Positions 27,152 to 46,467 of a DNA stretch of 64,000 bases are shown here, one piece after another; the first letter of the stretch is position 1, and every line of letters starts with the position of its first letter. The stretch comes from Myxococcales bacterium. Lineage in GTDB: Bacteria > Myxococcota_A > Polyangia > Fen-1088. The DNA lies in the NCBI GenBank assembly GCA_003153015.1, contig PMBS01000254.1, positions 9,568 to 73,567 of the forward strand, given 5' to 3'. Below the pieces are notes generated by a model. It saw only the letters and a list, made by a program, of their open reading frames with translations, did no database searches and was not told the origin of the DNA. Position numbers and translations under genes: made by a program.

Positions 27152-29170
27152 GTGCAACCTCACAAAGCGATGCTTTCGCGACCTTCTCCACTTCACCACA
27201 TTGTTGCGACGGCTGGTCTATGTCTTCTCGGCGCGGCAAGTTGTAGCAAGAACAGCGGCTCGCCGGTCGTCGATGCTGCCTTCGGGCCAGACGCGGGTCT
27301 CGTTGACGCTCCGACCTGCCCCGCGTCCTGCGACGACAACAACCCGTGCACGGTGGATAGCTGCGATCCCACCACGTACCAGTGCGTTCACGCCAACGTT
27401 CCCGACGGTACGAGCTGCCAAGGCAAGCCCTGCACGACGAACAGCATCTGCCAGGGCGGGCTCTGCCTCGATGGACCGTTCAAGAAATGCACGGTGGCGA
27501 GCGATCAATGCCACGTGGCCGGCCCGTGTAGCCCCAAGACTGGCGACTGCACCAGCGAAAATGCACCCGAAGGGAAGACTTGCGACGATGGCAACTTGTG
27601 CACCTACGCCGACCAGTGTAAGGCCGGCGTGTGCGTCGGGACTCCGCTCGTGTGCCCCACCACCTGCGACCCGGCCACGGGTTCTTGCCCAGGCGGTTTC
27701 CCCACGGCGCTCCTAGATCGGTTGATTGACAACGCATCTTGGCCGGTCAACAGTGGCGCGATTCTCAGATCACCTGACGGACAGATCTTTGCTGCCGGGG
27801 CCTATGTGAAACAGATCGATCTTGGGTCGGGTCCCATTGTCCAGAACCAAGATCCAACTTTCGGGGCCGCCGACACAGACGTCTTTCTTGCTAGGTTGGA
27901 TCCGTCCGCGCTCAAGGCCACTTGGGCCGTGACGTTCGTCGGGCCCAGGGATCAGTCCGTGACCTCCTTCGCGGTGGACGGAGCCGGCCACTTGGGCGTG
28001 ATAGGTCCCCTGATGGGTTCCATCACGGTGGCCGGCAATGAACTGGAGGCGCTGAGGCCCGGGGACCAGTACATCCTGGGCGCCAGCACCGCGGATGGCA
28101 GTGGCTTGTGGGTGCGGCGGGTGAACCTGCAGAGCGGGACGGAAGACAGCCGAACCGTTGGCCTTCGCGCGATAGCGGGCGACCCCAATGGCAGCTCCTT
28201 CGTGGTTTGTGGGACGGTAGCGTGCGCAACCGGACCCATGCGGGGGGATGCTGGTCCTGATCCCAATCCGGCCAAAGACTTTTCGTCTTCGCTTGCCTGC
28301 AAGGGCGGTACTGATTTGGTTGTGGCGCGTATTGATAGCAGCACGCCCGACGCTGGCACCAACACCGGCAATGGGACGATCGTCTGGGCGGATGAGGTGG
28401 GCGGCATCAATGATGAGTATTGTGGAACGCTGACCATGGATGCCCAATCGAACACCTACGTCGTCGGCACGTATCGATTCGGAAGCGAAGTGGCGTTCGG
28501 AAGCACAACCCTGCCGATGGTGGACTCCGCAGGCTCGACGGCGTGGATGTACCTGGCCAAGCTGGGTCCCGACAACAAGTGGATTTGGGCGAAGCGCATT
28601 GGCTCGGGCGCGCAGTCCATCACACCTACCGCTATTCTCGCTGTTGACAATGTCGACGGCGCCAGCAGTGACGTCATCGTGGCTGGAACGATCGAAGTAG
28701 GGTCCCTGTTGTTTTCGACGGACAACGTGGGCGTTGTGCTGGACTCGCCCAATTTCATGGCCCGGTTCGATGGGTCGACGGGGGAGGAGCTTCGTTGGGT
28801 CAAAGGGATGGCCGTGGTCGTGAACAGTATGGCGGCGGACGGGGGGCACATCCTGGCTACCGGCAGCTATAGCGCCGCCGGCAACCTGGGGTCGGCTTCC
28901 TTGTCCCCGCCCTTGAAAACAGGTGCGTTCATCGCGGAGATTGATGGCAGCAACGGCGCGGTCGTGGCCGCCAAGGGGTACGGGTCGTCGCAGTACCTCA
29001 ACAGCGGCGCTGGCGTTGTTGCGATCACCGGTGCGGCTGGGTCGAGTGAGACCGGTAGCGTCTTGCTGCTCTCCTACGCGTCGCAAGTGGATCTGGGACC
29101 TCCCATCGGCGTCTTGCGAGCCACCGCGACCGCAAGCACGGCCAGTTGCCTGGCCAGGATCGCCCCATGA
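27152..29170 (+). CDS. lipoprotein with Cys-rich N-terminal module and SBBP beta-propeller repeats
   Basis: Lipobox LLGAASC. Cys-rich module (CPASCDDNNPCTVDSC...CDDGNLCT) also occurs in the 42949 gene. Repeated D.{2}GN.Y.{2}G motifs (DAQSNTYVVGTY etc.) typical of SBBP repeats. Confidence 0.7.
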   Translation: MQPHKAMLSRPSPLHHIVATAGLCLLGAASCSKNSGSPVVDAAFGPDAGLVDAPTCPASCDDNNPCTVDSCDPTTYQCVHANVPDGTSCQGKPCTTNSICQGGLCLDGPFKKCTVASDQCHVAGPCSPKTGDCTSENAPEGKTCDDGNLCTYADQCKAGVCVGTPLVCPTTCDPATGSCPGGFPTALLDRLIDNASWPVNSGAILRSPDGQIFAAGAYVKQIDLGSGPIVQNQDPTFGAADTDVFLARLDPSALKATWAVTFVGPRDQSVTSFAVDGAGHLGVIGPLMGSITVAGNELEALRPGDQYILGASTADGSGLWVRRVNLQSGTEDSRTVGLRAIAGDPNGSSFVVCGTVACATGPMRGDAGPDPNPAKDFSSSLACKGGTDLVVARIDSSTPDAGTNTGNGTIVWADEVGGINDEYCGTLTMDAQSNTYVVGTYRFGSEVAFGSTTLPMVDSAGSTAWMYLAKLGPDNKWIWAKRIGSGAQSITPTAILAVDNVDGASSDVIVAGTIEVGSLLFSTDNVGVVLDSPNFMARFDGSTGEELRWVKGMAVVVNSMAADGGHILATGSYSAAGNLGSASLSPPLKTGAFIAEIDGSNGAVVAAKGYGSSQYLNSGAGVVAITGAAGSSETGSVLLLSYASQVDLGPPIGVLRATATASTASCLARIAP

Positions 29171-29187
29171 GCGGGACGGCCAGCGAG

Positions 29188-29205
29188 GTGTAACAAATCC
29201 GACAC
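29188..29205. promoter_or_regulatory. imperfect palindrome GTGTAACAAATCCGACAC related to the perfect palindrome at 35782
   Basis: Shares the GTGT....TCCGACAC arms; lies ~80 bp upstream of the SBBP lipoprotein gene at 29284. Confidence 0.35.
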
Positions 29206-29283
29206 GAGAAATTCATAAATACCTCACCCGACACTGCCATGGGCGGGGGTATCTACGCATGACAACTATTCCCGGGCAGGGAC

Positions 29284-31212
29284 TTGACCAACAGCGAGGA
29301 AAACATGATTCGATATGCACAAGGAATACTTACCGTTCGCGGCCGGAAGCTAGGCACTCTCGTCTTGACTGGCGCGGTCGCCGCTTTCGCTTTGGCTGGA
29401 TGCAGCAGCGGTAGTAGTGAAAATCCGGGGAACCCGAAGGATGCAAGCCCGCCCAAGCAAGACACGGCGCAGCCTCCTGCAGATGTCGGCACGGGCGGCA
29501 CCGGGGGCGGGATGGGCGGTGCGGGAGGGGCCGGGGGCATGGATGCGTCACCGGATCGAGCCCCTCTAGGCGGAGCCGACAGTGGTGTTGATGCGGCCCC
29601 GGCCGATCGGCTCCCTGTCAACCCGGACGTTGCTGCTGGCGAGGCTGGCGCACCGGATGGGCTCTCGCCCAACCTAGACGTTCCTGCTGGCGATGCTGGC
29701 GCACCCGACGCGCTCCTGCCGAAGGACGTTCTCGCCAGCGATGCTGGCGCACCCGACGCGCCCTCGCCCAAGGACGGTCTCGCCCCCGATGGCGGCGGAA
29801 CCGCGTCGGATGGTGGCGGCGGGGAGGCAGGCTCCGGCACGTGCCCAAGTCCTGTGCATGCCTGGGCCTATCCGGTTGGGCAGTTCAACTCAATTGCTTG
29901 GGACCGGGACGGAAGCCTGGTTACCACAGCCTTGTTCAATTTCTCTACCACGAGCTTCGCCGGCCACCCGGTGACCAACGCGGGCGGCTCCGACCTGCTG
30001 GTCGCCAAGCTCGATCCTGCCACCGGCAACGCGACTTGGGTATTCACCGCTGGTGATTCCAACGATCAGACTGGCTACAAAGTGGAAGTGACCAGTAGTA
30101 ATTTGGCTGTGATTGGAAACTTCACCGGGACCCTGGACATCGATCCCGTGAATGGTGTGATTCCGCCGATTGTCAATGCAGGCACCACGCCAGTCGACTT
30201 CATCGTGGGCCTGAATGACAGCGACGGCACAGGGGCATGGTCCAAGAAGGTCGACCTGGGTGGGGGCCAGCTTTCTGCAGTGGCGGGCAACCGGGGCAAG
30301 GACTACTTCCTTGTTTGCGGCGCAGCGGCGAAGAAACCGACCACTCTCGCGGCGAGTGGAACGCTGGGCGGTGGGCAGGACGTGATCGTGGCTGCGATCA
30401 AGGCCAGCGATGGCACCGTCGTGTGGGCCAAGCTGTTCGGGGGCGCTATGGATCAAGCGTGCTACGCCGCAGCCCTTGATGACAGCGGAAATGCCTACTT
30501 CGCTGGCAGCTACGCCGGGACTCTCGACTTCGGGCTCGGCGCCCTCACGCCTGCCCCGACTGGTGCCAGTGATCAAATCGCCTGGGTGGCCAAGCTGAGC
30601 GGAGCGGACGGGACCGCCATCGCGACCAACACCTTCGGCACGTCGGGCCAGGTGAGACCCGAGAGCATGACGCTCGACCCTCAAGGTGCCTTGATCGTGA
30701 CTGGCGGGATCGGCGCGGCGGCGACCTTCGGGGATCGAACCTTGACCCCTTCCGGCAAAACGGATGCGTTTGTTGCCAAGCTCAGCCCATCCACCTTGGT
30801 TCCCTTGTGGGCGCGGAACATGGGCGGCAGCGGCACGGCCGTAGCCAGTGGCAAAGGCGCAGGGGTGGATTCGGCTGGCAACGTCACAGTGGTGGGCACT
30901 TTCAATGTTTCTCTCAAGGTGGGCCCGGGCGATGCGGCGTTGGTGCCCGCCGCGCAGGTCTCCGAGACCTGGGTGGCTACGCTGAACGGCACCGACGGGC
31001 AGACCCTGTGCGCCCATGGCTACGGGGATTCTTCGTCGACTGGCGGCGGGGCGTATGCCATCGCAATCAACCCTGGCGCTGCCGGGGCCAACAAGGATCG
31101 CGCGGCCATCGTCGGCTTCTTCGGCAAGGTCATCGACTTTGGTGCCCCGACCACGGCGCTGAGCGCGGTGGCGCAGAACACCCCGGTCACCGCGTATCTG
31201 CTAGAGATGTAG
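29284..31212 (+). CDS. lipoprotein with low-complexity Ala/Pro/Asp linker and SBBP beta-propeller repeats
   Basis: RBS GAGGAAAAC before ATG; lipobox LAGC; repeats DDSGNAYFAGSYAGTLDFG, DSAGNVTVVGTF. Confidence 0.7.
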   Translation: MTNSEENMIRYAQGILTVRGRKLGTLVLTGAVAAFALAGCSSGSSENPGNPKDASPPKQDTAQPPADVGTGGTGGGMGGAGGAGGMDASPDRAPLGGADSGVDAAPADRLPVNPDVAAGEAGAPDGLSPNLDVPAGDAGAPDALLPKDVLASDAGAPDAPSPKDGLAPDGGGTASDGGGGEAGSGTCPSPVHAWAYPVGQFNSIAWDRDGSLVTTALFNFSTTSFAGHPVTNAGGSDLLVAKLDPATGNATWVFTAGDSNDQTGYKVEVTSSNLAVIGNFTGTLDIDPVNGVIPPIVNAGTTPVDFIVGLNDSDGTGAWSKKVDLGGGQLSAVAGNRGKDYFLVCGAAAKKPTTLAASGTLGGGQDVIVAAIKASDGTVVWAKLFGGAMDQACYAAALDDSGNAYFAGSYAGTLDFGLGALTPAPTGASDQIAWVAKLSGADGTAIATNTFGTSGQVRPESMTLDPQGALIVTGGIGAAATFGDRTLTPSGKTDAFVAKLSPSTLVPLWARNMGGSGTAVASGKGAGVDSAGNVTVVGTFNVSLKVGPGDAALVPAAQVSETWVATLNGTDGQTLCAHGYGDSSSTGGGAYAIAINPGAAGANKDRAAIVGFFGKVIDFGAPTTALSAVAQNTPVTAYLLEM

Positions 31213-31298: not shown

Positions 31299-33629
31299 GT
31301 GGCATCCAGCAAATCGCCACTTCACCATGGCCGCTTACCGGCGTCCATCATCGTCTTCTTGGGGCTGGCCGCTTCTTGCAAGAGCACGCCCCAAGAAAAG
31401 ATCGATGCCGGTCAGCGCAGGTATTGCAGCGCTTCGCTGGACGGGGGATCGGACGTCCGTGTCCGCGAGAGTGGAACAACCGACTTGTCCACCGATTCGC
31501 CTGACCTGGGCTCGGGCAACGAGGTCAGCACTCCGGATTTGTCGCCCCCGGCAGTCGACGGTCGCGCAGCGGACTCGGCTGAGGCGGGCGGTGGCGACAG
31601 CCGCGGTGGCGGGATAGATCTGGCCTTGTCGGATGCGCGGGACCGGGCGAATGAGGTGGGCGGCACGGGTGGCAGCACCGGCGAAGGCGGCAGTACTGGC
31701 ACGGGAGGCAGTGGTGGCGAGGGTGGCAGTACTGCCACTGGTGGCACCAGCGGCAGCGGTGGTACCGGCGATGCGCGTGGGCTCGACGCACCCTCGATCA
31801 GCGGCGGCGATGGCGGCGGCGACGTTTCCGTTGACCGCGGTTCGCCAGACCTGGCTCGGGATGCGCCGGCGGCCGATGTGGGCAGCGTCTATGACGTCTA
31901 TGACGTGCAAAGTGTCTACGACGCCTACCCGGATGCACCGGCAGATGCGCCCATGGCCGCTGATGTGGGCGCGGTCACGGACGCGCCCACAGTCGTGGAT
32001 CTCGGTCCCGACGCCGCCCCTGACGGCGCTGCCCTGACCTGCAGCACCGGCGGGGTGAGTTGGGCCAAGGCCTGGGACCCCCGCACGGTCAGCTTGATCA
32101 GGTCGGCGGTGTCTCCCGCCGGGATCCCGTGGGCTACCGGCTATTTTAGTGCAGCCACGGACTTTGGCACGGGAACACCGCTGCCGTCTTCCGCCAGCGG
32201 GGACACCGATGCATTCTTGGTCAAGCTGGACCCTTTGTCGGGGCTGGCCACTCAGGCCTTCAGCTTCAGCGATCCCAGCGGCAGAGACCAGATTGGGACC
32301 GGAGTAGCGGTCGCCCAGCCGGGAAACGTGGTGGTCACCGGCAATTACTACGGTGAAATCGACTTCACAGCGGTTGGCAGCGGCGATACCGGCACCAGCG
32401 GTGTTGACTATCTGGCGAAATCATCTGTCGTCCAGGCAGCCGCCATGAACTTCTACATTGTGGTGGATGGCGCGTCGTCTGGTCAGTACGTGACGCCTAT
32501 CAAGGCGCACAACATCGACGTGGGCACGGGCGCGATCGTGGCCGTCGCGTCCAACCCCAGCCAGAATAGCGTCGCTTTTTGCGGCAAGACCAGCAGGCTT
32601 GTCGATGCCTACACCACGGGCGCCAGCAACACTGGGTTGCGCACCGCTGGCAACTATGGCACGGGCGGCACCGGCCTTGCCGCTGCCACCTACGGCGGGA
32701 GCATGGACATCGTGGTAGCCGTGATCGACGCGAGCAACGACCCGAACAGCGTCGGCAAAGTCATCTGGGGCAGGCAGTTTGGTGGCGCAGGCGACCAGGC
32801 CTGTGAGTCCGTGGCCATGGACAGCGCCGGCAACGTGGCCATTGCCGGTAGCTACAATGGGACCTTGTTCTTCGACCCGACGAATGCGGCTCTCCAACTC
32901 GACGCTGGGAGCACCAGCGGCTCTCTCGCGCTTCCGTTCGTGGCCGTTCTGGACCCGAACGGGACGCCAGTACACGCCGCGAGCTGGGGCACCAGCGGCC
33001 TCTCGGATGTCAATGGCATAGCGTTTGATAGCAGCTCGCCAGCCAATATCGTCATCGGGGGATCCCTCGGTGCCACCATCACCATGACCATCAACTCCCA
33101 GCCGGTGCAGGTTGTCGACCTGGGCAAGACAGACGGCTTTGTGGCCAAGCTGAACTCCAGCCTGGTTCCGCAGTGGGCCATGTCGTTCGGCGACGCCGCC
33201 TACGATCAGAAGGTCCACGCTTTGGCCCTGTCGTCGAGCGGCAACGTGTTCATCGGTGGAAACTTTGAGGGCACGCTCAACGGGCTCAACGGTCTGACTT
33301 CAAACGGCAACGCCACGTACGACGCCTTCAGCGCGGAGCTCTCTGGGGCTGACGGCTCCGTGGTCTGCGCGCAACCGTACGGGGATGCCGAAGGGACACA
33401 GGATGTCTTTGCGCTTACTGTGGCCAGTGCCGCGACCGGGCCTTTGGCCGACTCTGTGATGATCGGCGGAAGTTTCAGCAACACCATCGCGCTGGGCTCC
33501 GCCACCCTGTGGAGTCCAGGCAACGTCTGCACTGTGCAAGCGGACTGCAAGAGCGGCGCGAGCTGTAGCAACGGGCACTGCGCAAGTGCCGGCACTAGCA
33601 GGAGCTTCATAGCCCGCCTTGGCCCCTAG
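31299..33629 (+). CDS. lipoprotein with Gly/Ser/Thr-rich linker and SBBP beta-propeller repeats
   Basis: Lipobox LAASC; C-terminal ~430 aa ~80% identical to the C-terminus of 42949..46467, with near-identical nucleotide stretches. Confidence 0.7.
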   Translation: MASSKSPLHHGRLPASIIVFLGLAASCKSTPQEKIDAGQRRYCSASLDGGSDVRVRESGTTDLSTDSPDLGSGNEVSTPDLSPPAVDGRAADSAEAGGGDSRGGGIDLALSDARDRANEVGGTGGSTGEGGSTGTGGSGGEGGSTATGGTSGSGGTGDARGLDAPSISGGDGGGDVSVDRGSPDLARDAPAADVGSVYDVYDVQSVYDAYPDAPADAPMAADVGAVTDAPTVVDLGPDAAPDGAALTCSTGGVSWAKAWDPRTVSLIRSAVSPAGIPWATGYFSAATDFGTGTPLPSSASGDTDAFLVKLDPLSGLATQAFSFSDPSGRDQIGTGVAVAQPGNVVVTGNYYGEIDFTAVGSGDTGTSGVDYLAKSSVVQAAAMNFYIVVDGASSGQYVTPIKAHNIDVGTGAIVAVASNPSQNSVAFCGKTSRLVDAYTTGASNTGLRTAGNYGTGGTGLAAATYGGSMDIVVAVIDASNDPNSVGKVIWGRQFGGAGDQACESVAMDSAGNVAIAGSYNGTLFFDPTNAALQLDAGSTSGSLALPFVAVLDPNGTPVHAASWGTSGLSDVNGIAFDSSSPANIVIGGSLGATITMTINSQPVQVVDLGKTDGFVAKLNSSLVPQWAMSFGDAAYDQKVHALALSSSGNVFIGGNFEGTLNGLNGLTSNGNATYDAFSAELSGADGSVVCAQPYGDAEGTQDVFALTVASAATGPLADSVMIGGSFSNTIALGSATLWSPGNVCTVQADCKSGASCSNGHCASAGTSRSFIARLGP

Positions 33630-33741: not shown

Positions 33742-35595
33742 ATGCCGAACCGATGGCTCATAGCCGCCCTGGCAGGATTGCTGCTGCTAACCGTGGTGGT
33801 CTATGCGCCAGGGCTTCACGGCGAGTTCCAATTCGATGACGTGCGTGCGGTGCAGTTCAACCAGAGTATTCGCCGCTTCGACAACTTCACTCACGCCCAG
33901 TCGCTCATGGACATGGTTCGGGGTAGGCGCGTCCTCACCGATCTTACCTTTGCCATCGATTACCATATTGCGGGCAACGATCCATTTGCATTTCACGCGA
34001 CCAATTTGGGCATTCACCTCGCTGTCATTCTGCTGGTGTTCTTCTTCACGCGCAGGATGCTCAAGCTCAGCGGTGCCTTGGGCGGCGATTTCTTGGCTTT
34101 GGCGGTGACTGCGGTATTCGCGTTGCATCCGCTGCAGACCCAGGCGGTGGCCTACGTCTCGCAACGGGCAGAGTCGCTGGCTTCTGCCTTCTACCTAGCC
34201 TCACTTCTGTCGTTGTTGGCGGCCGAGCGGCGCGGACGTTGCGCGGCTGGCGCCAGGCTCTACGCCGCTTCGTTTGCCTTGTTCGCGCTCGGGCTCGGCG
34301 CCAAAGTCATCGTGGCCACTCTTCCCGTCGCCTATCTATTGATGGGACTTCTGCCCGGTCCCCATGGCCTGCTGGCGCGCCGGTTGCGACGACTGGCGCT
34401 GGCCGCACCCTTTCTTGCCTACGCGCTGTTGACGACGGTTTTGACGGTGCCGAACTTGAAAGGAGAGGATGCGGGTTTCTTCATCCCGTTCATGCCACCG
34501 GGCCGCTATTTTCTGACCCAGTTGCACGTTCTCGTGACCTATCTGCGCCTGCTCTTTTGGCCGGCTGGCCAAAATGTGGATTGGGACTTCCCAGTGGCGC
34601 GCGGCCTGGCCGATCCAGCCGTACTCGGCTCTGGCTTTCTTCTCATCGTCCTGCTTGCGGGCGCGGGAATTCTCTTCTTCCGATGCCACTCGCGCACGGA
34701 CAGGGCAGGCGCGGCGGGACGAGCGGCCGGGTTTGGCGTGGCCTGGTTCTTTCTCGTCCTGGCCCCCACTTCCAGCGTGGTGCCCCTCGCCGACGTCGTG
34801 ATGGAGCATCGGCTCTATCTCGCATCTTGGGGCGTGCTTTTTGCAGTGGCAGTGCCGGCCACCGGCTTCGCCGCGCGCCTGCACCTGCAGGGCCTTTCGC
34901 GTTTCGGGGTGGCCGCGGTGGTGGGGCTATGCGCAGTTCTCGCCATGACCACTTACCTTCGCGTCGGGTTGTGGAGGTCGAAACTGCAGCTCTGGTCGGA
35001 CGCGGTGGCGAAGTCACCGCACAAGGCGCGCACACACCTTGGATTAGGGAATGCCTATCGTCTGGCAGGCCAGTTCCAACCGGCCATCGACGAGTATATG
35101 AACGCGCTGAATCTGGCGGGCAATGACCCGACTTGGGTGCGAAACAGCATCCGCGAAAAGCTTGCCGCGGCTCTGCTGTGGCAGGCACGTAGTGAAGAGG
35201 CCATCGCCGCGCTCCAGGCGGGCTTGGCAGAGGATCCGAACCACAGCGCCTTGCTCGGTACCCTGGCCATGGCCTATCTGCAGCGACACGAGCTGGCGCA
35301 GGCCGAGGCGGCGGCAGAGCAATCTGTGCGCACGTCTCCCAGACCTGCATCCTCCCTGCTCGTGTTGGGCATGGTTCGCACGCAGAGGGGCGACCAGGCG
35401 GGTGCGACAGACGCATTCGCACGAGCGGTGAAATTGGAACCCGACGAGTTGCAGGGGAGCCGCCTGCTCGCCCAGGCGTATCGCGCGCAGGGGCGCACCC
35501 GGGAGGCTTGCGATGTCTTGCGCTCCTTCCGAGAGCCGAACCTGGAGCAGCATGAGCAATTGCAGCAGGCAATGGCAGGCTGCCCGCCCCGCTGA
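33742..35595 (+). CDS. TMTC/PMT-like (GT-C fold) membrane glycosyltransferase with C-terminal TPR repeats
   Basis: N-terminal YAPGLHGEFQFDDVRAVQFN motif, characteristic of the DUF1736/TMTC family, at the first TM; ~10 predicted TM helices; TPR-like C-terminus (NAYRLAGQFQPAIDEYMNAL, LAQAYRAQGR). Confidence 0.6.
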   Translation: MPNRWLIAALAGLLLLTVVVYAPGLHGEFQFDDVRAVQFNQSIRRFDNFTHAQSLMDMVRGRRVLTDLTFAIDYHIAGNDPFAFHATNLGIHLAVILLVFFFTRRMLKLSGALGGDFLALAVTAVFALHPLQTQAVAYVSQRAESLASAFYLASLLSLLAAERRGRCAAGARLYAASFALFALGLGAKVIVATLPVAYLLMGLLPGPHGLLARRLRRLALAAPFLAYALLTTVLTVPNLKGEDAGFFIPFMPPGRYFLTQLHVLVTYLRLLFWPAGQNVDWDFPVARGLADPAVLGSGFLLIVLLAGAGILFFRCHSRTDRAGAAGRAAGFGVAWFFLVLAPTSSVVPLADVVMEHRLYLASWGVLFAVAVPATGFAARLHLQGLSRFGVAAVVGLCAVLAMTTYLRVGLWRSKLQLWSDAVAKSPHKARTHLGLGNAYRLAGQFQPAIDEYMNALNLAGNDPTWVRNSIREKLAAALLWQARSEEAIAALQAGLAEDPNHSALLGTLAMAYLQRHELAQAEAAAEQSVRTSPRPASSLLVLGMVRTQRGDQAGATDAFARAVKLEPDELQGSRLLAQAYRAQGRTREACDVLRSFREPNLEQHEQLQQAMAGCPPR

Positions 35596-35799: not shown

Positions 35800-35978
35800 C
35801 CGAAGACGTCAGCTTTCCGTCGGGGAGAGATACATCCTGCGAGATTACTCATGCAGAAAATAGTAAGCAATATTTCTAAACATCCATGGCCGATGATCCG
35901 AACCTCCTTCTGTGACCGCTGGTTCGCAGTTCAGCAAACAGCACGAGCGCTGTGCCCCGCGACAGGAGGAGTTCCACC

Positions 35979-38242: not shown

Positions 38243-39760
38243 CTACTGGGCTACACGGGTGGGAATCTCGCGCAGGTCGTTTGAACCAATGCCCAACTGA
38301 CCCGCCGAATTGTCGCCCCAGCACCACAGCGAGCCACCCGTGGCCAACGCGCAGGCGTGGGTGACGCCTGCGGCCACCATGGCCCAGGTCTGCCCGGATG
38401 TGACGACGGCAACCGGCGTGCTCCTCAAATTGACGGTGTTGTCCCCCAGTTGCCCCGAACTGTTGCTGCCCCAGCACCAGAGGGTACCGTCCAGCATGAT
38501 GGCACACGTGTGGGACTGACCGGCCGACACGCTCTGCCAGGTGGTGCCCGCGACCTGCACCGGATCGCTGGTTTGCGAGGTGGGGAGCACAGGAATGCTG
38601 TCGTTGCCCAGTTGGCCGGAGAGGTTCCCGCCCCAACACCAAAGGGTTCCATCGGGCTTGGTCGCGCAAGAGTGGTACAGGCCCGTCGTCACCTGCGCCC
38701 AGGTTCCGCTCAGCTGAACCGGTGACCAGGGGAACTGCGACTTGGTGCCAACCTCCAGATTGGCATTGAGGCCCCAGCACCAAAGGGTTCCGTCGGTCTT
38801 GACGGCGCACGCGTGCAAGTAGTTCGCACTTACCTGGCTCCAGCCTTGCCCGGTGACGTGAATGGGGACGGCACTCGAATTCGTGTCGCCGGTTCCGAGC
38901 GTGCCATTGGTATTGTCACCCCAGCACCAGAGGGTGCCGTCCTGCTTGATTGCGCAGGTTGAATACAGGCCGGCGGCCACGCTTTGCCAGGGCCCCCCGG
39001 GCACATCCGCCTGTCCAGCCGCTGCAGATCCAGGGACCGCCCCCAGTTGACCTGAACCGTTGTTGCCCCAACAGGACAGCGTGGCCTGGTTGCTCACCGC
39101 ACAGGAGTGGCTCTGTCCGCAAGCCACCTGATTCCACGCAGCACCCCCCACTGCGACCGGGGTCAAGCGGTTGAAGGTGCTGGGCAAGAGAAGTTGACCG
39201 TAGGTGTTGCTGCCCCAGCACCAGAGACTGCCATTCGAGCGGATTGCGCAGGTGCTCTCCTTGCCCACGGCCACCTGGGCAAAGGGAACGCCGCCGCCTG
39301 CGGTCGATTCCGGCGGGCCGGTAGTCCCGGCGTCGGGATACCCGGACTGACCGCTATCCACAGAACCTGAGGATGCCGGCGCAGTGGCAAGCGCAGCTAA
39401 TTGCACATTCAGGTCAATTCGTCCGCCCGCGACGACTTGACCGCTGACTGTGCCAGAACCCACGAGGGTGAACTTGTTGTCGATCGCCTCGACCTGCACC
39501 TGGATGGCACCACTGCGCGAACTTGGCAAGATCAACACCAGCGTGCTGGGAAACCCTAGCTCGCCAGCAGCGGTTTCGGGAATGATCTTCTGGAACTGGG
39601 CGGTGCCCGGGTTGCTGACGGTCACGCGAAGCTGGTAGACGCGAGGAACGTCGCAGTTCACGTCTGTGTGAAGCACCAAATACGAGTCCTTTTCGGACTG
39701 GCACGAAAGGCTGCACAGAACGACCGCTGCCGTGGAAAAGGTGGCCAGACGCGAAATCAT
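38243..39760 (-). CDS. RCC1-repeat (beta-propeller) protein
   Basis: At least 7 repeats of the form ..H[ST]CA.....LWCWG.N..GQLG; ATGA overlap with the upstream TPR gene. Confidence 0.7.
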   Translation of the reverse strand: MISRLATFSTAAVVLCSLSCQSEKDSYLVLHTDVNCDVPRVYQLRVTVSNPGTAQFQKIIPETAAGELGFPSTLVLILPSSRSGAIQVQVEAIDNKFTLVGSGTVSGQVVAGGRIDLNVQLAALATAPASSGSVDSGQSGYPDAGTTGPPESTAGGGVPFAQVAVGKESTCAIRSNGSLWCWGSNTYGQLLLPSTFNRLTPVAVGGAAWNQVACGQSHSCAVSNQATLSCWGNNGSGQLGAVPGSAAAGQADVPGGPWQSVAAGLYSTCAIKQDGTLWCWGDNTNGTLGTGDTNSSAVPIHVTGQGWSQVSANYLHACAVKTDGTLWCWGLNANLEVGTKSQFPWSPVQLSGTWAQVTTGLYHSCATKPDGTLWCWGGNLSGQLGNDSIPVLPTSQTSDPVQVAGTTWQSVSAGQSHTCAIMLDGTLWCWGSNSSGQLGDNTVNLRSTPVAVVTSGQTWAMVAAGVTHACALATGGSLWCWGDNSAGQLGIGSNDLREIPTRVAQ

Positions 39761-40506
39761 GGCGAGACCCGAATCGCACCGTAGGTTGAAAGGGGAACCT
39801 GGTTTTCGGGACGGGTAAACCACCAGGCCGCCGCGCCGCCAGCAGCCAGCGCAACACCCACCGACGTCCAGAACCACCACCGGCGATATACCGGGCGCCG
39901 GGTTGGCTCGACCGGCGCGGCCGGCTCGGACGAGAGTGACAGGCCAACCGCCGGCGGGGGCGGCGGGGGCCGGGGAGTCAGCACGACCGGCGGTGGCTCA
40001 GCAGCTTCGGCCTGCAGATCCTCCAGCGGGGGCGGTGCCAGATCCCGCCCGGCTGGAGCCGGCGCGGTCATCAAGTTGTCCAGTTGCTTGTCTTGTTGTT
40101 TCTCTTGGCCGCCCCGATCCGCCGGTCGATTGAGCACGAACGAGGTGATGGTCTCGATCTCTGCCGCGGCTCGCTCGAGCTGCGTCCGGTATTTCGGCAT
40201 CGAACCGGCGGCACGAAGGAAGGAGCTGTATGACGCCAGAGCCTTCTCGGGCTTGCCGGCCAGACGATACGCCTGCCCCAGACTATAGAGGAGCATTGGA
40301 TCCTGGGTCAGGGTGTAGGCCTGCGAGAGATGCTCGATGGCTTCGTCGTACCGGCCCAGATTGAGCGCGACCATTCCCTTGGCGCGCTCGGCGCCAGCGA
40401 TCGAGCTTTCGCCCGATCCTTTGGCCAGTACCGACGGGCAGGGAAGCGCGAGCAGCAACGCCACGGCGAGCAGATGAAGCCGCAGCCACAGAGGACAGGA
40501 ACGCAT
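39757..40506 (-). CDS. membrane-anchored TPR-repeat protein
   Basis: Strong RBS GGAGGTG 7 nt before ATG at 40506; signal/TM; TPR-like helices; Pro-rich linker and C-terminal TM (WWFWTSVGVALAAGGAAAWWF). Confidence 0.6.
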   Translation of the reverse strand: MRSCPLWLRLHLLAVALLLALPCPSVLAKGSGESSIAGAERAKGMVALNLGRYDEAIEHLSQAYTLTQDPMLLYSLGQAYRLAGKPEKALASYSSFLRAAGSMPKYRTQLERAAAEIETITSFVLNRPADRGGQEKQQDKQLDNLMTAPAPAGRDLAPPPLEDLQAEAAEPPPVVLTPRPPPPPPAVGLSLSSEPAAPVEPTRRPVYRRWWFWTSVGVALAAGGAAAWWFTRPENQVPLSTYGAIRVSP

Positions 40507-40576
40507 GACGGGACACCTCCACAATGCAAGACGCAATATCGAATGGAGGAAGCGCCGGATCAAGCAAGGATCGCGT

Positions 40577-40594
40577 ATGTGACAGGAGTGTCAC
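40577..40594. promoter_or_regulatory. ATGTGACagga GTGTCAC - 11-bp phased half-sites (also an inverted repeat)
   Basis: Lies ~280 bp upstream of the PstS-like gene at 40871. A second element, CGTCAGTTATCCGTTGCG at 40720-40742, resembles (as reverse complement) the element at 46662-46698 upstream of the cassette-B PstS-like gene. Confidence 0.35.
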
Positions 40595-40870
40595 CCTTCC
40601 TTTGCAAAGAGTTAACAAATCGAGGTCATCGACGTCGATGACGCTAGCAACTGAAAGCTGCGACTTCCGTCGGTGCGTTCGCTCTGGGTTGTGCGGGGCA
40701 GCGAGGGATTTCGCAAGAGCGTCAGTTATCCGTTGCGAATGGTTGGCAAAGCCCTCACACACATCCCGCTTGCAAGCTGCTATTCAGTGTGCCGCCGGAA
40801 TAGGGGAAGCGGCCAAGGGGGTGCGCGACCAAGCCGGCGCGGAAAACGAACGATTCAAGGAGGCAGCAAA

Positions 40871-42694
40871 ATGTCAACAGCATGGAATCGCATCATGAGG
40901 ATGCTCGGGGTGGCCATCCCGACATCGATCGCCGTCTTGGCGATGGCAAGCGGCGCCGCCTGGGCGCAGGAAACCTGCCCTAGCACCGCACTCGACCCGA
41001 ATACTGTGCCAATGGCGCCCGACCCGGGGTACATGGATCCAAACGTCGCTGCGGCCTGCAACGCCACATACGGTGCTGGTCACGGGTGCTTCCGCTTGGA
41101 CGGGTCGGACACTCTGACTGATGTCGTCCACAACGCGATCAACGCCTCGGGGGCGTGCATCAGCTATCACAACATCGGCTCGGGACAGGCCGAAACCAAC
41201 ATGCTAGCCGGGGCCGGTACTGGAAGCGGCACCGTCAACCAGGGAATCGGCCCGATGTCGCGGAATTTCAAGGTCAGCGTGGCCAACGACAATACTGCTT
41301 TGGGCGCCGTAGTTAACCCGACCTGGGTCGCATACGACCCGCAGGTGGTCGCGCTGGACGCTGGTGTCTTCACTTTCTACAAGCGGGTCGGTGGCGCTGT
41401 CAATCTTGACAATGTCAAAGGCTGGCCGGCCGCCTGCGCTAGCGCTTCCTATTGTCAGTCCGCCATAACCTCCGGCGTCGTCCCTCTGGCGGTCCTTATG
41501 AGTGGCAAGCCCACCTCCGGGGCCAAGAGCCTGGCGACCACGGCCGAGTGCGCGGATCCTTGCCGGGTTTGCCTGGTTGAGTGGCTCGGCAGTCAGAGCG
41601 TTGAGGGTGTACCCATCGAACACATCCTCCGCCGCGATGACAAGTCCGGTACGCAGGACACCTTCCGCGAGATGACCAATGTCGACCGCTGGTGCAACGG
41701 CAAGTCCGAGGGCAATATCAACCATGCCGGCAGCAACTTGCTCAACGAGGACCTGGATCCCATCCGGCGCGACTGCATGGCCGGGCCCACCGGCGCGTTG
41801 GCGGCGACCCGTTGCACCTACTACCCGACCGGCCAGAGCTGTCTGAGCGGAGATGCTAACATCCCGGCAAACGGATCGATCGTCATCAGAGGTGTCACTC
41901 TCGCGAACACGTACAGTGAAGCCCTCAAGTGTACCCAGGGGCTTGTCGTGGCGATTTCGGAGAACGATCCTCCTCCCGCGACTGACATCACCACGTCGAT
42001 TGGACTCCGGGTTGAGTTCGGGGCCGGCCTGGCGCAAGGCTCAATCATTGGGATGACAGGGCTAGCTGGCGATCTTAGTGGGTTGGGGGCCCATGCGGCG
42101 GGCGCCGCGATAAACGTTCCGGTCGCCATCGACGGCATCACCCCGACCAATCACGACAACATCTACTTCGGAACCTACAAGTTCTCGCGGCGTTTGTTCC
42201 TGCAGCGGAACCCCGGCTTCACCGATGCCAACCGAAGCGCGGGCGAGGCGGCGGGCCGAACGGCGGAAGAGACCAAGCTCTACAACTGGGCGCAAGGCCA
42301 TACCTGTCCCCTGGCGACGCTGGCCACCAACGCGGGATTCCTCGGGAAACTGCGTAGTGGCGGCTGCGGCGATGACTGCAGCACCGGTCAGAATCCAAGC
42401 ACGCTCAGCTGCTTGAAGGGTGATCCAGGAATCGGCACGCCCAAGCAGAACATCGGCGCGGAGACCGGGTCGAATCATGCCTGCAACGCGTCCTATCCGT
42501 GCGTCGCGAACGGTACAGTGGGCACCGGTACCCCGATCAGCTGCGGTGTCACGGGTAGCACCAGCTGCCCGAATATCCCGGTTCTGGCCAGCGGCGCCCC
42601 GGGCTCCGCTTGCAGCATGAACGAAAAATGCTCAGGCAGCAATTGCGCGATCGCTGCCGGCGAGGTGGGTGGCTGCTGCGGTTCGTGCCCATAA
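40871..42694 (+). CDS. PstS-like (PBP_like_2) substrate-binding protein with long Cys-rich C-terminal region (third paralog)
   Basis: Signal peptide; motifs IGSGQAETN...GTGSGTVNQGIGPMSRNFK and RRDDKSGTQDTFREMTN match the phosphate-binding-protein fold; C-terminal ~120 aa Cys/Gly/Ser-rich. Confidence 0.55.
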   Translation: MSTAWNRIMRMLGVAIPTSIAVLAMASGAAWAQETCPSTALDPNTVPMAPDPGYMDPNVAAACNATYGAGHGCFRLDGSDTLTDVVHNAINASGACISYHNIGSGQAETNMLAGAGTGSGTVNQGIGPMSRNFKVSVANDNTALGAVVNPTWVAYDPQVVALDAGVFTFYKRVGGAVNLDNVKGWPAACASASYCQSAITSGVVPLAVLMSGKPTSGAKSLATTAECADPCRVCLVEWLGSQSVEGVPIEHILRRDDKSGTQDTFREMTNVDRWCNGKSEGNINHAGSNLLNEDLDPIRRDCMAGPTGALAATRCTYYPTGQSCLSGDANIPANGSIVIRGVTLANTYSEALKCTQGLVVAISENDPPPATDITTSIGLRVEFGAGLAQGSIIGMTGLAGDLSGLGAHAAGAAINVPVAIDGITPTNHDNIYFGTYKFSRRLFLQRNPGFTDANRSAGEAAGRTAEETKLYNWAQGHTCPLATLATNAGFLGKLRSGGCGDDCSTGQNPSTLSCLKGDPGIGTPKQNIGAETGSNHACNASYPCVANGTVGTGTPISCGVTGSTSCPNIPVLASGAPGSACSMNEKCSGSNCAIAAGEVGGCCGSCP

Positions 42695-42948: not shown

Positions 42949-45900
42949 ATGGCTACTAAGCGAATGACATGGATGGCAGCCGCGCTCGGCGCGGTCGCCC
43001 TGAGTGGCATGGTGAGCTGTAACGGTAAGGGTGGTAAGGAAGCGGGCGCGGCGGCGGTCGGCGTGAGCGGCCAGGCATTGACCCTCGGCGACGTCAAGTC
43101 GGTCAGCGTTACCGTCACGGGCGGGATCGCCAACCCGCTGACTGTTCCCCTCGTCGGGAATTCGAACGTTCCCCCCACGCAATACTCCGCATTGATCAGC
43201 GACCTGCCCATCGGCTGCAACTACGTCTTCACCGCCACGGCCACGAACACCGCCGGCGCCACAATCTATCAGGGCGTCGCGAGCGGCCAGTGCATCACGA
43301 AGAACCAGACCGCGAACATCATCATCGACATGAACGACACGACGACGCACGTAACCGTGGATGACGAGGCCCCGTTCATCGACTCGATCACGGACACAGC
43401 CGCCTGTGTCGCGGTCGGCGACACCGTCACCATCAAGGCCACCGCCCACGATAGCGATCCCGGCGACACGGCTGGCATGACGTTCGTGTGGAGCGTTCCG
43501 AGCTGCGGTACCCTCAGCACGCCGGTCAACACGGTCGGCACCGACACCACCCCAGGCACTTCGACGGTTGTCTTCACGGCGGTCACCAACAACGTCAACT
43601 GCCAGGTCAACCTGGTGGTGAAGGACGCGCGGATGCCCACGACTTTGCAGACCACCGCGGTGGTCGCAATCTCGATCGGCGACGCTTGCGCGTACGGCAA
43701 TGCCAAGATCACGGCCATCCCGGACACCTGCCCGGCCATCACCGGCCTGACCTCCAGCGCATCGCCCTTGGTCACCGGTGTTCCCACGACCCTGACGGTG
43801 ACCGCCTCGGACTCGGATGGCGACGCCCTCAGCTATCACTGGACCTCTGACTGCAATCCCACCAACGGCCTCGGTCACTTCCTTGGCGCCAACCCTGCTT
43901 CTGCCACTGGAAATCCAGTGCAATTCGTCTACGACAGCGCCCTCAGCGGACCGGACTGCATCTTCACCGTGACCGTGGACGACGGCACGTGGACGAGCGG
44001 ACAGTTGCAAGGCCAAACCAAGTGCTCGGTCATCACCCACATGAGCCTGCCGGCACAGTCGACCGGGTACCATCAGGCGGACGCCTGCACGTTCGGCTAC
44101 GACTACATGTCGACGAATACCGTAGGCGATGGCGACCAGGTGACGATCGAGATCGCCGCCCCATGCTCGAACCCGGTTTGGTCGGCTGGAACGCCGATTC
44201 CGGCTGGGAACCTCACCGCGCCCTTCACCACTGGCGTCACCTTCATCGCCCCAACCGGCGCGGGTGCTAACGGCGCTACCGTGACCGTGACCTGCCCGGA
44301 CTGCGGGGGAGGCACGCTGCACACCTTCACCATGATCGGGGTGAACTCCTTCTGCACTCAACCTGGCGTCAGCGAAGGCGCGGACTGCACCTTGACGGCT
44401 CAGCTCAGCGACAAGTGCATCCTGACGGCTGCGTGCCACGCTGGGCAGTGCCAGCAGACGAGCTACCATGCTCCATGCGGGCCAAGCGGCGTCGCGTGCC
44501 AGGATTACGTGTGCCAGAAGACCACCGGTCAGTGCGCCAACCAGCCCTCGGCCGACGGCACTGATTGCACCGACGGCCTCGCCTGCGACGGAACCGCCGA
44601 CAAGTGCGCTGGCGGCGCCTGCCACCCGACGGGAACCCCGGTGTCCTGCCCCGCGACCGGCAATCCCTGCATGGTTAACGCCTGCACCGAGCCGAACGGC
44701 TCGTGCGTGGCCGCCGCCGCGCCTAGCGGCACGGCCTGCGACGACGGCAACGCCTGCACCGGCACGGTCGTAACCGCGCCGAGCGGGACCACCCCCGGGA
44801 CCTCTGCTGACTTCTGCAACGCCAACGGCGTGTGCGTCGGCTCGGGTGCGACTGTTGCCTGCCCGTCGGGCGACGTCTGCACGGCGGTTAGCGGCAGCGA
44901 CACCCAGTACACCTGCCCGGTCAAGGTCTGCATGGGCCCGGCCAACGCGGTCTCCGTCAGCACCCCTCTGATGTTCGGCATGGGCGTCGCTCCCGATGCT
45001 ACGCTTTGGACCACGGGCTCGTTCGCCAACTTCTCCACCAACCCGATCAACTTCGGCGCTGGCCCCGTCTATTCCTCTGGTGGCTCGGACGTCTACCTCA
45101 ACAAGGTGTCTGCGACCGGGCTGACTGCAAGCCAGACCTTCACCTTTGGCTACCAGGGCGGCGGCGACCAGGTCGGGACCGGTGTGGCGGTTGCCTCCAC
45201 CAACAACGTTGGCCTCATCGGGAACTACTACACCGAGGTCGACTTCGACCCGATCAGGTCTGGCGACCCAGCCTACAACGGCGGCGGCGGCCCGATTGAC
45301 AACTTCGACTTCCTTGCGAAGTCCTCGTTGGTCCAAGCCGCGGCCATGAACTTCGTCCTGGTCGCCAGTGGTGCGTCAACCATGCCGGAAATCACGCCCC
45401 TCAAGGCCCACAACATCGATGTGGGCACGGGCGCGATCGTGGCCGTCGCATCCAACCCCAGCCAGAACAAGATCGCGATCTGTGGCAAGAGCATGAGGCT
45501 TGTCGGCGCCTACAACGCGGCCACTACCAACACTGGATTGCTCACCGCTGGCAACTATGGCACGGGCGGCAGCGGCACCACCGCCGCCGTCGCCGGCGGC
45601 AGCATGGACATCGTGGTAGCCGTGATCGACGCGAGCAACGACCCGAACAACGTCGGCAAGGTCCTCTGGGGCAGGCAGTTTGGTGGCGCAGGCGACCAGG
45701 CCTGTGAGTCCGTGGCCATGGACAGCGCCGGCAACGTGGCCATTGCCGGTAACTACAATGGAGTCTTGAACTTCCACCCGACGAATACTGCTCTCCAACT
45801 CACCAAGTCTGGTGGGAGCACCAGCGGCGCTCTCGCGCTTCCGTTCGTGGCCGTTCTGGACCCCAACGGGACGCCAGTGCAGGCCATGGACTGGGGCACC

Positions 45901-46467
45901 AGTGGCGCGTCGGATGTCAATGGCATAGCGTTTGATAGCAGCGGCAATGTCGTCATCGGGGGAGCCCTCGGTGCCACCATCGCCATGCCCAAAGCCGACG
46001 CCACCTTGATCACGGTTACCGACCTGGGCAAGACCGACGGCTTCGTGGCCAAGCTGAACCCCAACCTGTCTGCGCAGTGGGCGATGTCGTTCGGCGACGC
46101 CAGCTACGCCCAGGCGGTCAAGTCGTTGGCCCTATCGTCGAGCGGCGACGTATTCATCGGTGGGAATTTCGAGGGCACGCTCAACGGGCTGAACGGCCTG
46201 GTTTCAAACGGCAATGCCACGCTCGACGCGTTCAGCGCCGAGCTCTCTGGAACTGACGGCTCGGTGCTGTGCGCGCAAGAGTATGGCGATACTCAAGGGA
46301 CGCAATCGGTCAACTTCGTCACCGTGGCGAATGCCGCGACCGGGTCCTTGGCCAACAACGTGGTGTACGGTGGCAGCTACTCGAACACGATCACCTTCGG
46401 GACGTTCACCCTCAACACGGGAAGCGCCGGTACGGGCTGGAACTTCCTCGCTCGCCTGATTCCGTAG
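42949..46467 (+). CDS. giant lipoprotein: PKD/Ig-like repeats + Cys-rich module + SBBP beta-propeller repeats
   Basis: RBS AAGGAGGA; lipobox GMVSC; N-terminal repeats like those in 35979/36812/55295; Cys-rich module like 27152; C-terminal ~430 aa near-duplicate of the 31299 gene. Confidence 0.7.
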   Translation: MATKRMTWMAAALGAVALSGMVSCNGKGGKEAGAAAVGVSGQALTLGDVKSVSVTVTGGIANPLTVPLVGNSNVPPTQYSALISDLPIGCNYVFTATATNTAGATIYQGVASGQCITKNQTANIIIDMNDTTTHVTVDDEAPFIDSITDTAACVAVGDTVTIKATAHDSDPGDTAGMTFVWSVPSCGTLSTPVNTVGTDTTPGTSTVVFTAVTNNVNCQVNLVVKDARMPTTLQTTAVVAISIGDACAYGNAKITAIPDTCPAITGLTSSASPLVTGVPTTLTVTASDSDGDALSYHWTSDCNPTNGLGHFLGANPASATGNPVQFVYDSALSGPDCIFTVTVDDGTWTSGQLQGQTKCSVITHMSLPAQSTGYHQADACTFGYDYMSTNTVGDGDQVTIEIAAPCSNPVWSAGTPIPAGNLTAPFTTGVTFIAPTGAGANGATVTVTCPDCGGGTLHTFTMIGVNSFCTQPGVSEGADCTLTAQLSDKCILTAACHAGQCQQTSYHAPCGPSGVACQDYVCQKTTGQCANQPSADGTDCTDGLACDGTADKCAGGACHPTGTPVSCPATGNPCMVNACTEPNGSCVAAAAPSGTACDDGNACTGTVVTAPSGTTPGTSADFCNANGVCVGSGATVACPSGDVCTAVSGSDTQYTCPVKVCMGPANAVSVSTPLMFGMGVAPDATLWTTGSFANFSTNPINFGAGPVYSSGGSDVYLNKVSATGLTASQTFTFGYQGGGDQVGTGVAVASTNNVGLIGNYYTEVDFDPIRSGDPAYNGGGGPIDNFDFLAKSSLVQAAAMNFVLVASGASTMPEITPLKAHNIDVGTGAIVAVASNPSQNKIAICGKSMRLVGAYNAATTNTGLLTAGNYGTGGSGTTAAVAGGSMDIVVAVIDASNDPNNVGKVLWGRQFGGAGDQACESVAMDSAGNVAIAGNYNGVLNFHPTNTALQLTKSGGSTSGALALPFVAVLDPNGTPVQAMDWGTSGASDVNGIAFDSSGNVVIGGALGATIAMPKADATLITVTDLGKTDGFVAKLNPNLSAQWAMSFGDASYAQAVKSLALSSSGDVFIGGNFEGTLNGLNGLVSNGNATLDAFSAELSGTDGSVLCAQEYGDTQGTQSVNFVTVANAATGSLANNVVYGGSYSNTITFGTFTLNTGSAGTGWNFLARLIP

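Follow-up and report, generated by a model that had tools for sequence, protein, structure and literature searches.

The stretch of DNA studied here (the window) comprises 64,000 nucleotides (nt) of contig PMBS01000254.1 from a Myxococcales bacterium (GenBank assembly GCA_003153015.1, positions 9,568 to 73,567 of the forward strand). Its G+C content is around 63%, and the closest relatives of its proteins are found in uncultured Polyangia and Myxococcales genomes from soils and fens. Ten open reading frames (ORFs), all of them at the coordinates of Table 1 and with a coding-type G+C content at third codon positions (0.72-0.84), lie between positions 27152 and 46467. They encode mainly lipoproteins, and among them there is a gene for a GT-C type membrane glycosyltransferase provided with TPR repeats (called GT below). 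This enzyme is related to the animal protein O-mannosyltransferases TMTC1-4 according to profile comparison, and it is kept close to the same set of lipoprotein genes in related genomes.

Genes A, B, C and GT are co-directional, with intergenic gaps of 86-114 nt. On the opposite strand, the TPR stop overlaps the RCC1 start as ATGA and only 3 nt separate the RCC1 stop from the PKD2 ATG; TPR, RCC1 and PKD2 therefore form a tight operon of which TPR is the first gene. The four propeller lipoprotein genes A to D had been described as consecutive in a previous sequence-only reading of this region, but D is actually located 9.3 kb after C.

Table 1. Features of the window, and loci of related genomes (L numbers) in which orthologues were recognised for genes A, X and D
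Feature	Position	Strand	Description	Orthologues
PhoB-like regulator	14164-14955	+	OmpR-family response regulator; best match TIGR02154, 213 bits (cutoff 296)	
Left flanking module	15902-25665	-	g15902, TonB_C-fused TonB-dependent receptor, TonB, ExbD, ExbB, g21454, porin O/P-like protein, g24382	
Operator upstream of A	27054-27080	+	Pho-box-like: GTGAC ttgc CTGTCAC atag TTGTAAC, 11-bp register; first heptamer 107 nt before ATG 27170	
Gene A	27152-29170	+	Lipoprotein; N-terminal Cys-rich (Dicty_CTDC-like) domain, C-terminal divergent SBBP propeller; likely start ATG 27170	L001, L003, L004, L008, L009, L010, L085, L086
Gene B	29284-31212	+	Lipoprotein (LAGC); Gly/Ala/Pro/Asp-rich linker of ~155 residues, SBBP propeller	
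Gene C	31299-33629	+	Lipoprotein; Gly/Asp/Ala/Ser-rich linker of ~245 residues, SBBP propeller	
GT	33742-35595	+	TMTC-homologous GT-C glycosyltransferase (from profile comparison); 11 predicted transmembrane helices, predicted periplasmic TPR domain (residues ~414-617)	
PKD1	35952-36731	+	Small lipoprotein; two Big_9/PKD Ig-like domains; likely start ATG 35979	
PKD2	36812-38239	-	Lipoprotein consisting of an Ig-like array	
RCC1	38243-39880	-	RCC1-repeat propeller lipoprotein (Pfam E 4e-84); likely ATG 39760	
TPR	39757-40563	-	Small TPR protein; signal peptide, C-terminal transmembrane helix; likely start ATG 40506	
Motif GTGACactcCTGTCACata	40575-40594	-	Upstream of the TPR-RCC1-PKD2 operon; conserved in L001 and L003	
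Gene X	40673-42694	+	Secreted Cys-rich protein without recognised domain; true start ATG 40871 after an AAGGAGG ribosome-binding site	L001, L009, L010, L085, L086
Gene D	42949-46467	+	Mosaic lipoprotein; PKD2-like Ig array, Cys-rich region, SBBP propeller	L009, L010 (full length)
Right flanking module	46721-54557	+	g46721, porin O/P-like protein, g49919, TonB_C-fused receptor, g53535	
PKD-metallophosphoesterase	55295-58192	+	Lipoprotein; PKD2-like Ig array fused to a calcineurin-like metallophosphoesterase	
Comparator site upstream of pstS	61848-61865	+	TTGTAAC gtaa CTGGCAC; first heptamer 107 nt before pstS ATG 61955	

The enzyme consists of a membrane domain (the first 405-420 residues) followed by a C-terminal TPR domain. 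Pfam and NCBIfam detect the TPR repeats alone (residues 416-598): no Pfam family matches the membrane domain at E <= 10, and the same search on 28 diverse homologues from several phyla gave no membrane-domain match at E <= 1. Single-sequence and profile searches of the PDB with GT returned TPR proteins or nothing, the membrane domain being unmatched. The PMT_2/DUF1736 (PF08409) assignment that had been suggested for checking finds no match in GT or in the 28 diverse relatives, and GT has neither a PMT/PMT_2 match in Pfam nor a MIR domain. Its homologues are more than 1000, and several of the close ones are labelled "protein O-mannosyl-transferase" by the Joint Genome Institute (JGI).

The published N-terminal alignment of human and fly TMTC1-4 (supplement of PMC7801869) was rebuilt and compared with a profile of 29 bacterial N-terminal domains. 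The two profiles match in hhalign with a probability of 99.94% (E 8.6e-37) over 356 columns, at an identity of around 21%. This profile-profile comparison, the single basis of the assignment, indicates that GT is a true homologue of animal TMTC1-4. The motifs M2 to M7 of the TMTCs are SHKSYRP, RxD, KE(T/Q)xxT, DW, PxxP and ERxxY (PMC7801869 Table 4). In GT, D32 and D33, which belong to GEFQFDDVRAVQFN (residues 27-40), align with the DD of the first periplasmic loop, and R63 aligns with the Arg of SHKSYRP, the SHKSY part being absent. Besides, FALHPLQTQAV..QRAE (R142-A-E144) aligns with FAVHPIHTEAV..GRAE, K188..T193 with KEQGIT, D280 W281 with DW, and EHRLYLAS (E355, Y359) with AERVLYVPS, where the Arg of ERxxY is found one position further on (EHRLY). 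Both D32 and D33 are invariant in 26 relatives with 40-77% identity and in 29 relatives with 27-48% identity from several phyla, and around 30 further positions are invariant across phyla. The TMTC-like identity proposed in the sequence-only reading is borne out, with the conserved acidic catalytic motif present and invariant.

The AlphaFold model of GT shows a helical bundle and then a TPR superhelix (per-residue confidence, pLDDT, 87; predicted template-modelling score, pTM, 0.85). The helix pattern fits 11 transmembrane helices, with positively charged loops around residues 160-167, 207-213, 313-320 and 379-387. The model fits a topology in which the N-terminus would be cytoplasmic and both the DD loop and the TPR domain would be periplasmic. 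The same arrangement has been described for TMTCs and for TfpW, a pilin glycosyltransferase of P. aeruginosa.

The surroundings of GT homologues were scored for homologues of all ten window proteins. Every locus with a GT at least 52% identical (L001/L007, L003, L004, L006, L008, L009 and L010) has A/B/C homologues within 10 kb, and most of these loci also carry PKD1, PKD2, RCC1, TPR, X or D; the 74 loci whose GT does not exceed 45% identity have no module homologues nearby, except for two weak RCC1 matches. A search started from homologues of gene B instead of GT leads to the same cluster (L085 and L086). In total, A/B/C are kept with GT in nine related loci and in at least five gene orders: A>B>C>GT in the window, L001 and L010; <C<B<A GT> in L004 and L008; RCC1>PKD2>GT> in L003 and TPR>RCC1>GT> in L009, both with A and B at least 7 kb away on the other strand; and A>B>C> <X GT> PKD1> in L085 and L086. 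Either PKD1 or PKD2 directly adjoins GT in the window, L001, L003, L009, L085 and L086, and no PKD1 homologue lies within 10 kb of GT in L010. The co-localisation of the enzyme with lipoproteins, first noticed in the window, is thus a wider property of these loci. Proximity that is kept through repeated rearrangement suggests a functional module, and a functional link between GT and the lipoprotein set is supported by comparative genomics. Operons that join GT to RCC1/PKD2 or TPR/RCC1 are as common in the relatives as those that join it to the SBBP genes, and the SBBP proteins hence do not stand out as substrates.

The proteins of the module differ in their rate of change. In the comparison with L001, identity is 48-60% for A, B, C and X and 77-82% for GT, PKD1, PKD2 and RCC1. 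The faster divergence of X and of the SBBP lipoproteins is in keeping with surface proteins that are exposed and diversifying.

On the other hand, a general partner for the whole GT family was sought and rejected. The 125 immediate neighbours of the 74 distant homologues include 25 TPR genes (taken as GT paralogues from size and strand), 5 radical SAM and 4 GT2 genes, and no other partner recurs. In Omnitrophota, Nitrospirota and Desulfobacterota (L068, L073, L081, L084 and others) the GT-C/TPR genes are often apparently arranged in tandem arrays. In L005/L011 (Anaeromyxobacter-type) the GT homologue, 45% identical, has an overlap with the end of the preceding gene, whose product is a Glucodextran_C (SLH-like, Ig-type) protein; the two may be another enzyme-substrate pairing. 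YfhO (Pfam), a second GT-C-type membrane protein, is encoded beside the cluster in L003 (5748-6563) and L004 (1107-3461), and none was seen among the window ORFs scanned. In L001, the 77%-identity relative, PKD1 and PKD2 are separated by an insertion (13286-15617) with a DDE transposase and a DUF4143 gene. Two further loci are mosaic with respect to the window: in L008 (1-2323, 11767-12119) the PKD1/PKD2 DNA is 92% identical, with one short stretch at 94%, and GT and A-C are around 70% identical; in L006 (1915-3790) GT is 92% identical and the adjacent C gene 75-79%. These mosaics could be due to recombination between co-occurring lineages or to assembly chimeras.

Concerning the propeller lipoproteins, A, B, C and D have in common a C-terminal domain of around 450 residues (25-32% identity; 63% between the propellers of C and D). 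The Pfam cutoff for SBBP (20.5 bits) is passed by the isolated domains of C (21.3) and D (28.7); B scores 13.4 and A gives no match. All four match weakly the NCBIfam family Lepto_SBBP_lipo (NF047494; E 7e-9 to 6e-4, 19-35 bits against a cutoff of 400), and a database search from B reaches proteins bearing PF06739 at E ~1e-36, one of them named "SBBP repeat-containing protein". The AlphaFold (AF2) model of the B domain is an all-beta propeller (pLDDT 95, pTM 0.94). Its best match by fold is the propeller of CylK (Foldseek E 2.8e-18, template-modelling score 0.73), which is also the best match by sequence profile (E 1.3e-51) and the sole solved relative of the A-D propeller. The domain is a divergent SBBP-type seven-bladed propeller. 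The earlier assignment to SBBP-type propellers stands as regards homology and fold, with a marginal Pfam recognition that passes the cutoff for the isolated C and D domains; the repetition of D..GN.Y..G modules that had been described is overstated, the strict pattern D..GN.x..G occurring 0-2 times per protein.

Lipoboxes were recognised by pattern match in A (AASC), B (LAGC), C (AASC), D (MVSC), PKD1 (TLGC), PKD2 (FLAC) and RCC1 (SLSC), and a lipobox after a signal peptide is also found in most orthologues; the genes at 27152, 29284, 31299 and 42949 do encode lipoproteins, as had been read from the sequence. The long low-complexity linkers reported for these proteins exist in B and C, although their composition is different from the Gly/Ser/Thr/Ala-rich one described. 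The linker of B (residues 40-195) contains 21% Gly, 18% Ala, 14% Pro, 12% Asp and 8% Ser, Ser plus Thr being 12%; that of C (residues 27-270) contains 19% Gly, 13% Asp, 13% Ala, 12% Ser and 7% Thr, with 19% Ser plus Thr. Such linkers are missing from A, which has the Cys-rich domain in that place, and from D, where the Ig array is followed by the Cys-rich region. The Ser plus Thr fraction of the module lipoproteins ranges from 0.10 to 0.24, which does not sustain the premise of Ser/Thr-rich lipoproteins. A short Ser/Thr/Pro patch is present right behind the lipidated Cys in most of them, for example CSSGSSENP and CEGQPPTDSPTQP.

The PKD-like and RCC1 assignments agree with Pfam (PKD/Big_9 and RCC1). 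The N-terminal module of PKD2 recurs in D (32% identity) and in the metallophosphoesterase at 55295 (33%). This Ig-array lipoprotein module of around 380 residues is used three times (36812-38239, 42949-44350 and 55295-56500), with a different C-terminal part in each case: none in PKD2, the Cys-rich region and SBBP propeller in D, and a metallophosphoesterase in the third protein. The same Ig array-metallophosphoesterase architecture is found in L004, with a motif triplet upstream.

Regarding gene regulation, the sites upstream of A and of pstS (Table 1) are at the same distance from their start codons. The motif GTGACnnnCCTGTCACATA upstream of A is found again before the TPR operon, oriented with respect to that operon as it is to A. 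The corresponding site of L001 upstream of A has three units and thus exceeds that of the window by one 11-nt unit. The pattern TGTMAY-N5-TGTMAY (one mismatch allowed at most) occurs 5 times in the window against 1.1 expected, a number reached by none of 100 shuffles, and all five sites are intergenic, including those upstream of A, the TPR operon and pstS. Motif-like sites are present at 9340-9356 and 10036-10052. Eight related loci contain 7 matches against 3.1 expected (mononucleotide shuffles, maximum 7); six of the seven, placed against gene calls, fall in promoter regions of A, TPR, RCC1, PKD1 or metallophosphoesterase, and the seventh is at 12806-12822 of L003.

The PHO box consists of heptamers in 11-nt direct-repeat units, the unit of E. 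coli being CTGTCAT (PMC4415409). The literature searches made here yielded no PHO-box consensus for myxobacteria. A palindromic reading of GTGAC-N6-GTCAC was discarded, as the halves are direct repeats in L001 (GTCAC..GTCAC) and L003 (GTGAC..GTGAC); because of these direct halves, and because the third unit continues the 11-bp register, a direct-repeat operator of the OmpR/PhoB type is preferred. A shared PhoB-type operator is predicted from these sequences with slightly better than even confidence. The Pho-box-like element that had been noticed at the first gene consists of two 11-nt direct-repeat units, and the phosphate-starvation programme proposed on that basis is plausible, being strengthened by the pstS counterpart at equal distance and by the phosphate genes across the window.

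Phosphate metabolism is widely represented in the window, which encodes a PafA-like phosphodiesterase, polyphosphate kinase, exopolyphosphatase, two porin O/P-like proteins, a PKD-metallophosphoesterase lipoprotein and a canonical PstS. In the phosphate-metabolism block at 6122-14955, two PhoB-like regulators (6122-7057 and 14164-14955) enclose the genes for the PafA-like phosphodiesterase, ppk1 and ppx, and no histidine kinase appeared among the ORFs scanned. A regulator equivalent to that at 14164-14955 lies beside the cluster in L004, L085 and L086, and the cluster of L003, L004, L085 and L086 comes with the receptor module and a PhoB-like regulator. The left and right flanking modules are mirror-image paralogues that bracket the cluster (29-50% identity between paralogue pairs), each with an unknown secreted protein of 430 residues, a porin O/P-like protein, an unknown protein of 310 residues, a TonB-dependent receptor and an unknown lipoprotein of 315-340 residues. 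The TonB-dependent receptors (16850-19501, minus strand; 50617-53535, plus strand) carry an N-terminal TonB_C ahead of CarboxypepD_reg, Plug and barrel, an unusual fusion also seen in L003, L085 and L086.

Gene X and the pair g24382/g46721 were considered as PstS-like binding proteins and rejected, since the sole indication was one weak NCBIfam match (E 3e-5) and hhalign was negative (0.6% and 18%). Upstream of X (~40735-40780) there is a promoter-like element, CGTTGCGAA-N4-TTGGCAAAG-N3-TCACACA, kept in six genomes (window, L001, L009, L010, L085 and L086). The window and L001 are around 90% identical over some 140 nt upstream of X, whereas the X protein itself is only 48% identical. A sigma-54 reading of the conserved TTGGCAAAG..TCACAC element was ruled out at the -12 GC, and no Rfam family above threshold is found upstream of X or anywhere else in the window. 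Scans for consensus promoters (5, with 2.8 expected) and terminators (16, with 12.8 expected) gave no useful information.

Taking these data together, the cluster may be interpreted as a lineage-specific module of Polyangia, with around ten genes for exported cell-envelope proteins plus their own inner-membrane glycosyltransferase. It includes four SBBP-propeller, two PKD/Big_9 Ig-like and one RCC1-propeller lipoproteins, a small TPR protein and a secreted Cys-rich protein. With the catalytic DD loop and the TPR domain facing the periplasm, GT would most likely take the sugar from a polyprenyl-phosphate-sugar donor and, once one or more module proteins have been exported by Sec, O-glycosylate them; selection of the acceptor would fall to the TPR domain. 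The module would most likely be transcribed under a PhoB-type response regulator, and it would then belong to a larger phosphate-scavenging island together with TonB-dependent receptors, porin O/P-like proteins, phosphoesterases, ppk/ppx and pstS. We consider it about an even chance that GT is a dedicated periplasmic protein O-glycosyltransferase acting on one or more module proteins. A protein O-glycosyltransferase is favoured because both characterised relatives of the GT-C plus TPR architecture, TMTC1-4 and TfpW, modify proteins.

Several observations weigh against this interpretation. The glycosylation itself is deduced from sequence, and the membrane domain escapes the Pfam and PDB sequence searches. 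The Glu of the TMTC motif KE(T/Q)xxT, modelled as a metal ligand in TMTCs, corresponds to Val189 in GT (34306-34308); this position is Val, Ala, Ser, Pro or Gly throughout the Myxococcota branch, whereas other phyla keep TKE. In the alignment ArnT likewise lacks this Glu. Among the window ORFs scanned with Pfam/NCBIfam there is no sugar-activation gene, polyprenyl-phosphate-sugar synthase or flippase. The operator upstream of A is not detectable in L004, L009 and L010, and both PhoB-like regulators of the window remain below the PhoB cutoff (216 and 213 bits against 296). Finally, all cluster-bearing relatives are fairly close (GT identity 52-91%), so part of the synteny could be inherited.

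As for the acceptor, the folded Ig-like (PKD/Big_9) domains of PKD1, PKD2, the D N-terminus and the metallophosphoesterase could be modified in the way that TMTCs modify the extracellular (EC) domains of cadherins. This possibility, although unlikely, is the best placed among the alternatives. It agrees with the TMTC homology of GT, with the activity of TMTC and TMEM260 on cadherin and plexin-type domains, with the position of PKD1 or PKD2 directly beside GT at the loci mentioned above, with the use of one Ig-array module in three proteins of the island and with the slow evolution of PKD1, PKD2 and GT. However, it is a pure analogy in which no conserved acceptor Ser/Thr was identified, and L010 has no PKD1 homologue close to GT. 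In its full form, with these domains belonging to phosphate-starvation-induced surface lipoproteins and serving a domain-specific bacterial TMTC homologue, the analogy is less probable still.

The sequence-only reading had suggested a PMT-like O-mannosylation of the Ser/Thr-containing linkers of the four SBBP lipoproteins. The disordered linkers of B and C, the patches behind the lipidated Cys and the co-directional A-B-C-GT arrangement, with the same short gaps in the window, L001 and L010, are in line with it, and an actinobacterial Pmt acts in cell-envelope physiology according to PMC8698208. Nevertheless, the linkers are rich in Gly, Ala, Pro and Asp and absent from A and D, and the enzyme is a homologue of TMTC and not a PMT, as it lacks a MIR domain and PMT matches in Pfam. 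Activity on Ser/Thr-rich regions, which had been attributed to TMTCs, corresponds instead to PMTs, while TMTCs serve cadherin domains, as described in PMC7759382 and PMC11292533. Besides, in L003 and L009 GT is in an operon with RCC1/PKD2/TPR, far from A and B. Linker mannosylation is a weak proposal, the weakest part of that interpretation, and we regard it as quite improbable.

We attach the same low probability to GT being a general periplasmic O-glycosyltransferase, or a lipid or polysaccharide enzyme like ArnT, that is present in the cluster through phosphate-stress co-regulation alone. The GT-C superfamily includes lipid A and glycan transferases, ArnT being the structural template for TMTC modelling; distant GT homologues have no recurrent protein neighbour apart from the TPR genes taken as paralogues, and donor-synthesis genes are absent among the cluster ORFs scanned. 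Against this, the characterised GT-C relatives with extracytoplasmic TPR both modify proteins, and GT has stayed linked to the same set of proteins through at least five rearrangements. The absence of any functional link, the neighbourhood being inherited synteny among related Polyangia, is very unlikely: the cluster is seen only at GT identities of at least 52%, always in uncultured Myxococcales/Polyangia genomes, but order and strand have been reshuffled repeatedly with proximity retained, the operons have a putative operator in common, and the mosaic identity along L006 and L008 (70-94%) points to the exchange of parts within a maintained module. A dedicated protein O-glycosyltransferase, whichever module protein is the acceptor, continues to be the favoured reading.

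Bacterial GT-C enzymes with a TPR domain are widespread, with at least 598 confirmed relatives in species-representative genomes of many phyla, and the literature searches made here gave no functional study of this family. The cluster offers a short, conserved list of candidate protein substrates and a plausible inducing condition for a bacterial TMTC-like enzyme, so the question of what these enzymes glycosylate becomes testable. It also represents a candidate phosphate-scavenging locus of Polyangia, not described before, in which propeller and Ig-like lipoproteins occur together with TonB-dependent receptors, porin O/P-like proteins and phosphoesterases. If Ig-like domains were the acceptors, the system would parallel cadherin O-mannosylation in prokaryotes, perhaps as its forerunner, and would provide the first substrates for a very large and uncharacterised bacterial family.

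In comparison with known systems, the putative operators resemble those of PhoB/PhoP regulons, with two or three heptamers similar to the E. coli CTGTCAT in an 11-bp register upstream of pstS and the cluster operons. Lipoproteins A-D share lipidation and SBBP propeller with the SBBP-repeat lipoproteins (PF06739; LipL53 family NF047494 of Leptospira), but their scores are far below the cutoff of the latter family. CylK, a cyanobacterial Friedel-Crafts alkylating enzyme with a homologous propeller, is a soluble biosynthetic enzyme with another N-terminal domain, whereas A-D are lipoproteins. The PMT family (fungal Pmt1/2, actinobacterial Pmt) differs from GT in having the PMT/PMT_2 and MIR domains, in place of which GT has TPRs. 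The bacterial enzyme nearest in architecture is TfpW of P. aeruginosa, a pilin D-arabinofuranosyl transferase of the GT-C type (~640 residues, 11 transmembrane helices, DDx motif, periplasmic TPR domain) whose gene adjoins that of its substrate, pilA; GT would likewise have 11 helices, a DD motif, a periplasmic TPR domain and a gene placed beside those of candidate protein substrates, but no pilin gene is present here and the candidates are several and of different folds. Animal TMTC1-4 are protein O-mannosyltransferases of the endoplasmic reticulum for cadherins, and PMTs prefer Ser/Thr-rich or unfolded segments. With TMTC1-4 GT appears to share an 11-helix GT-C domain, the DD in the first extracytoplasmic loop, a non-cytoplasmic C-terminal TPR domain and motifs of the types HP..T.AV..RAE, K....T, DW and E.R.Y. 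It differs in being a bacterial protein of the inner membrane and periplasm with around 21% identity, without Pfam DUF1736 and with Val in place of the KE Glu, and its donor would be a polyprenyl-phosphate sugar. The locus represents no new category of system, but a variant, specific to this lineage, in which putative protein glycosylation is joined to nutrient scavenging.

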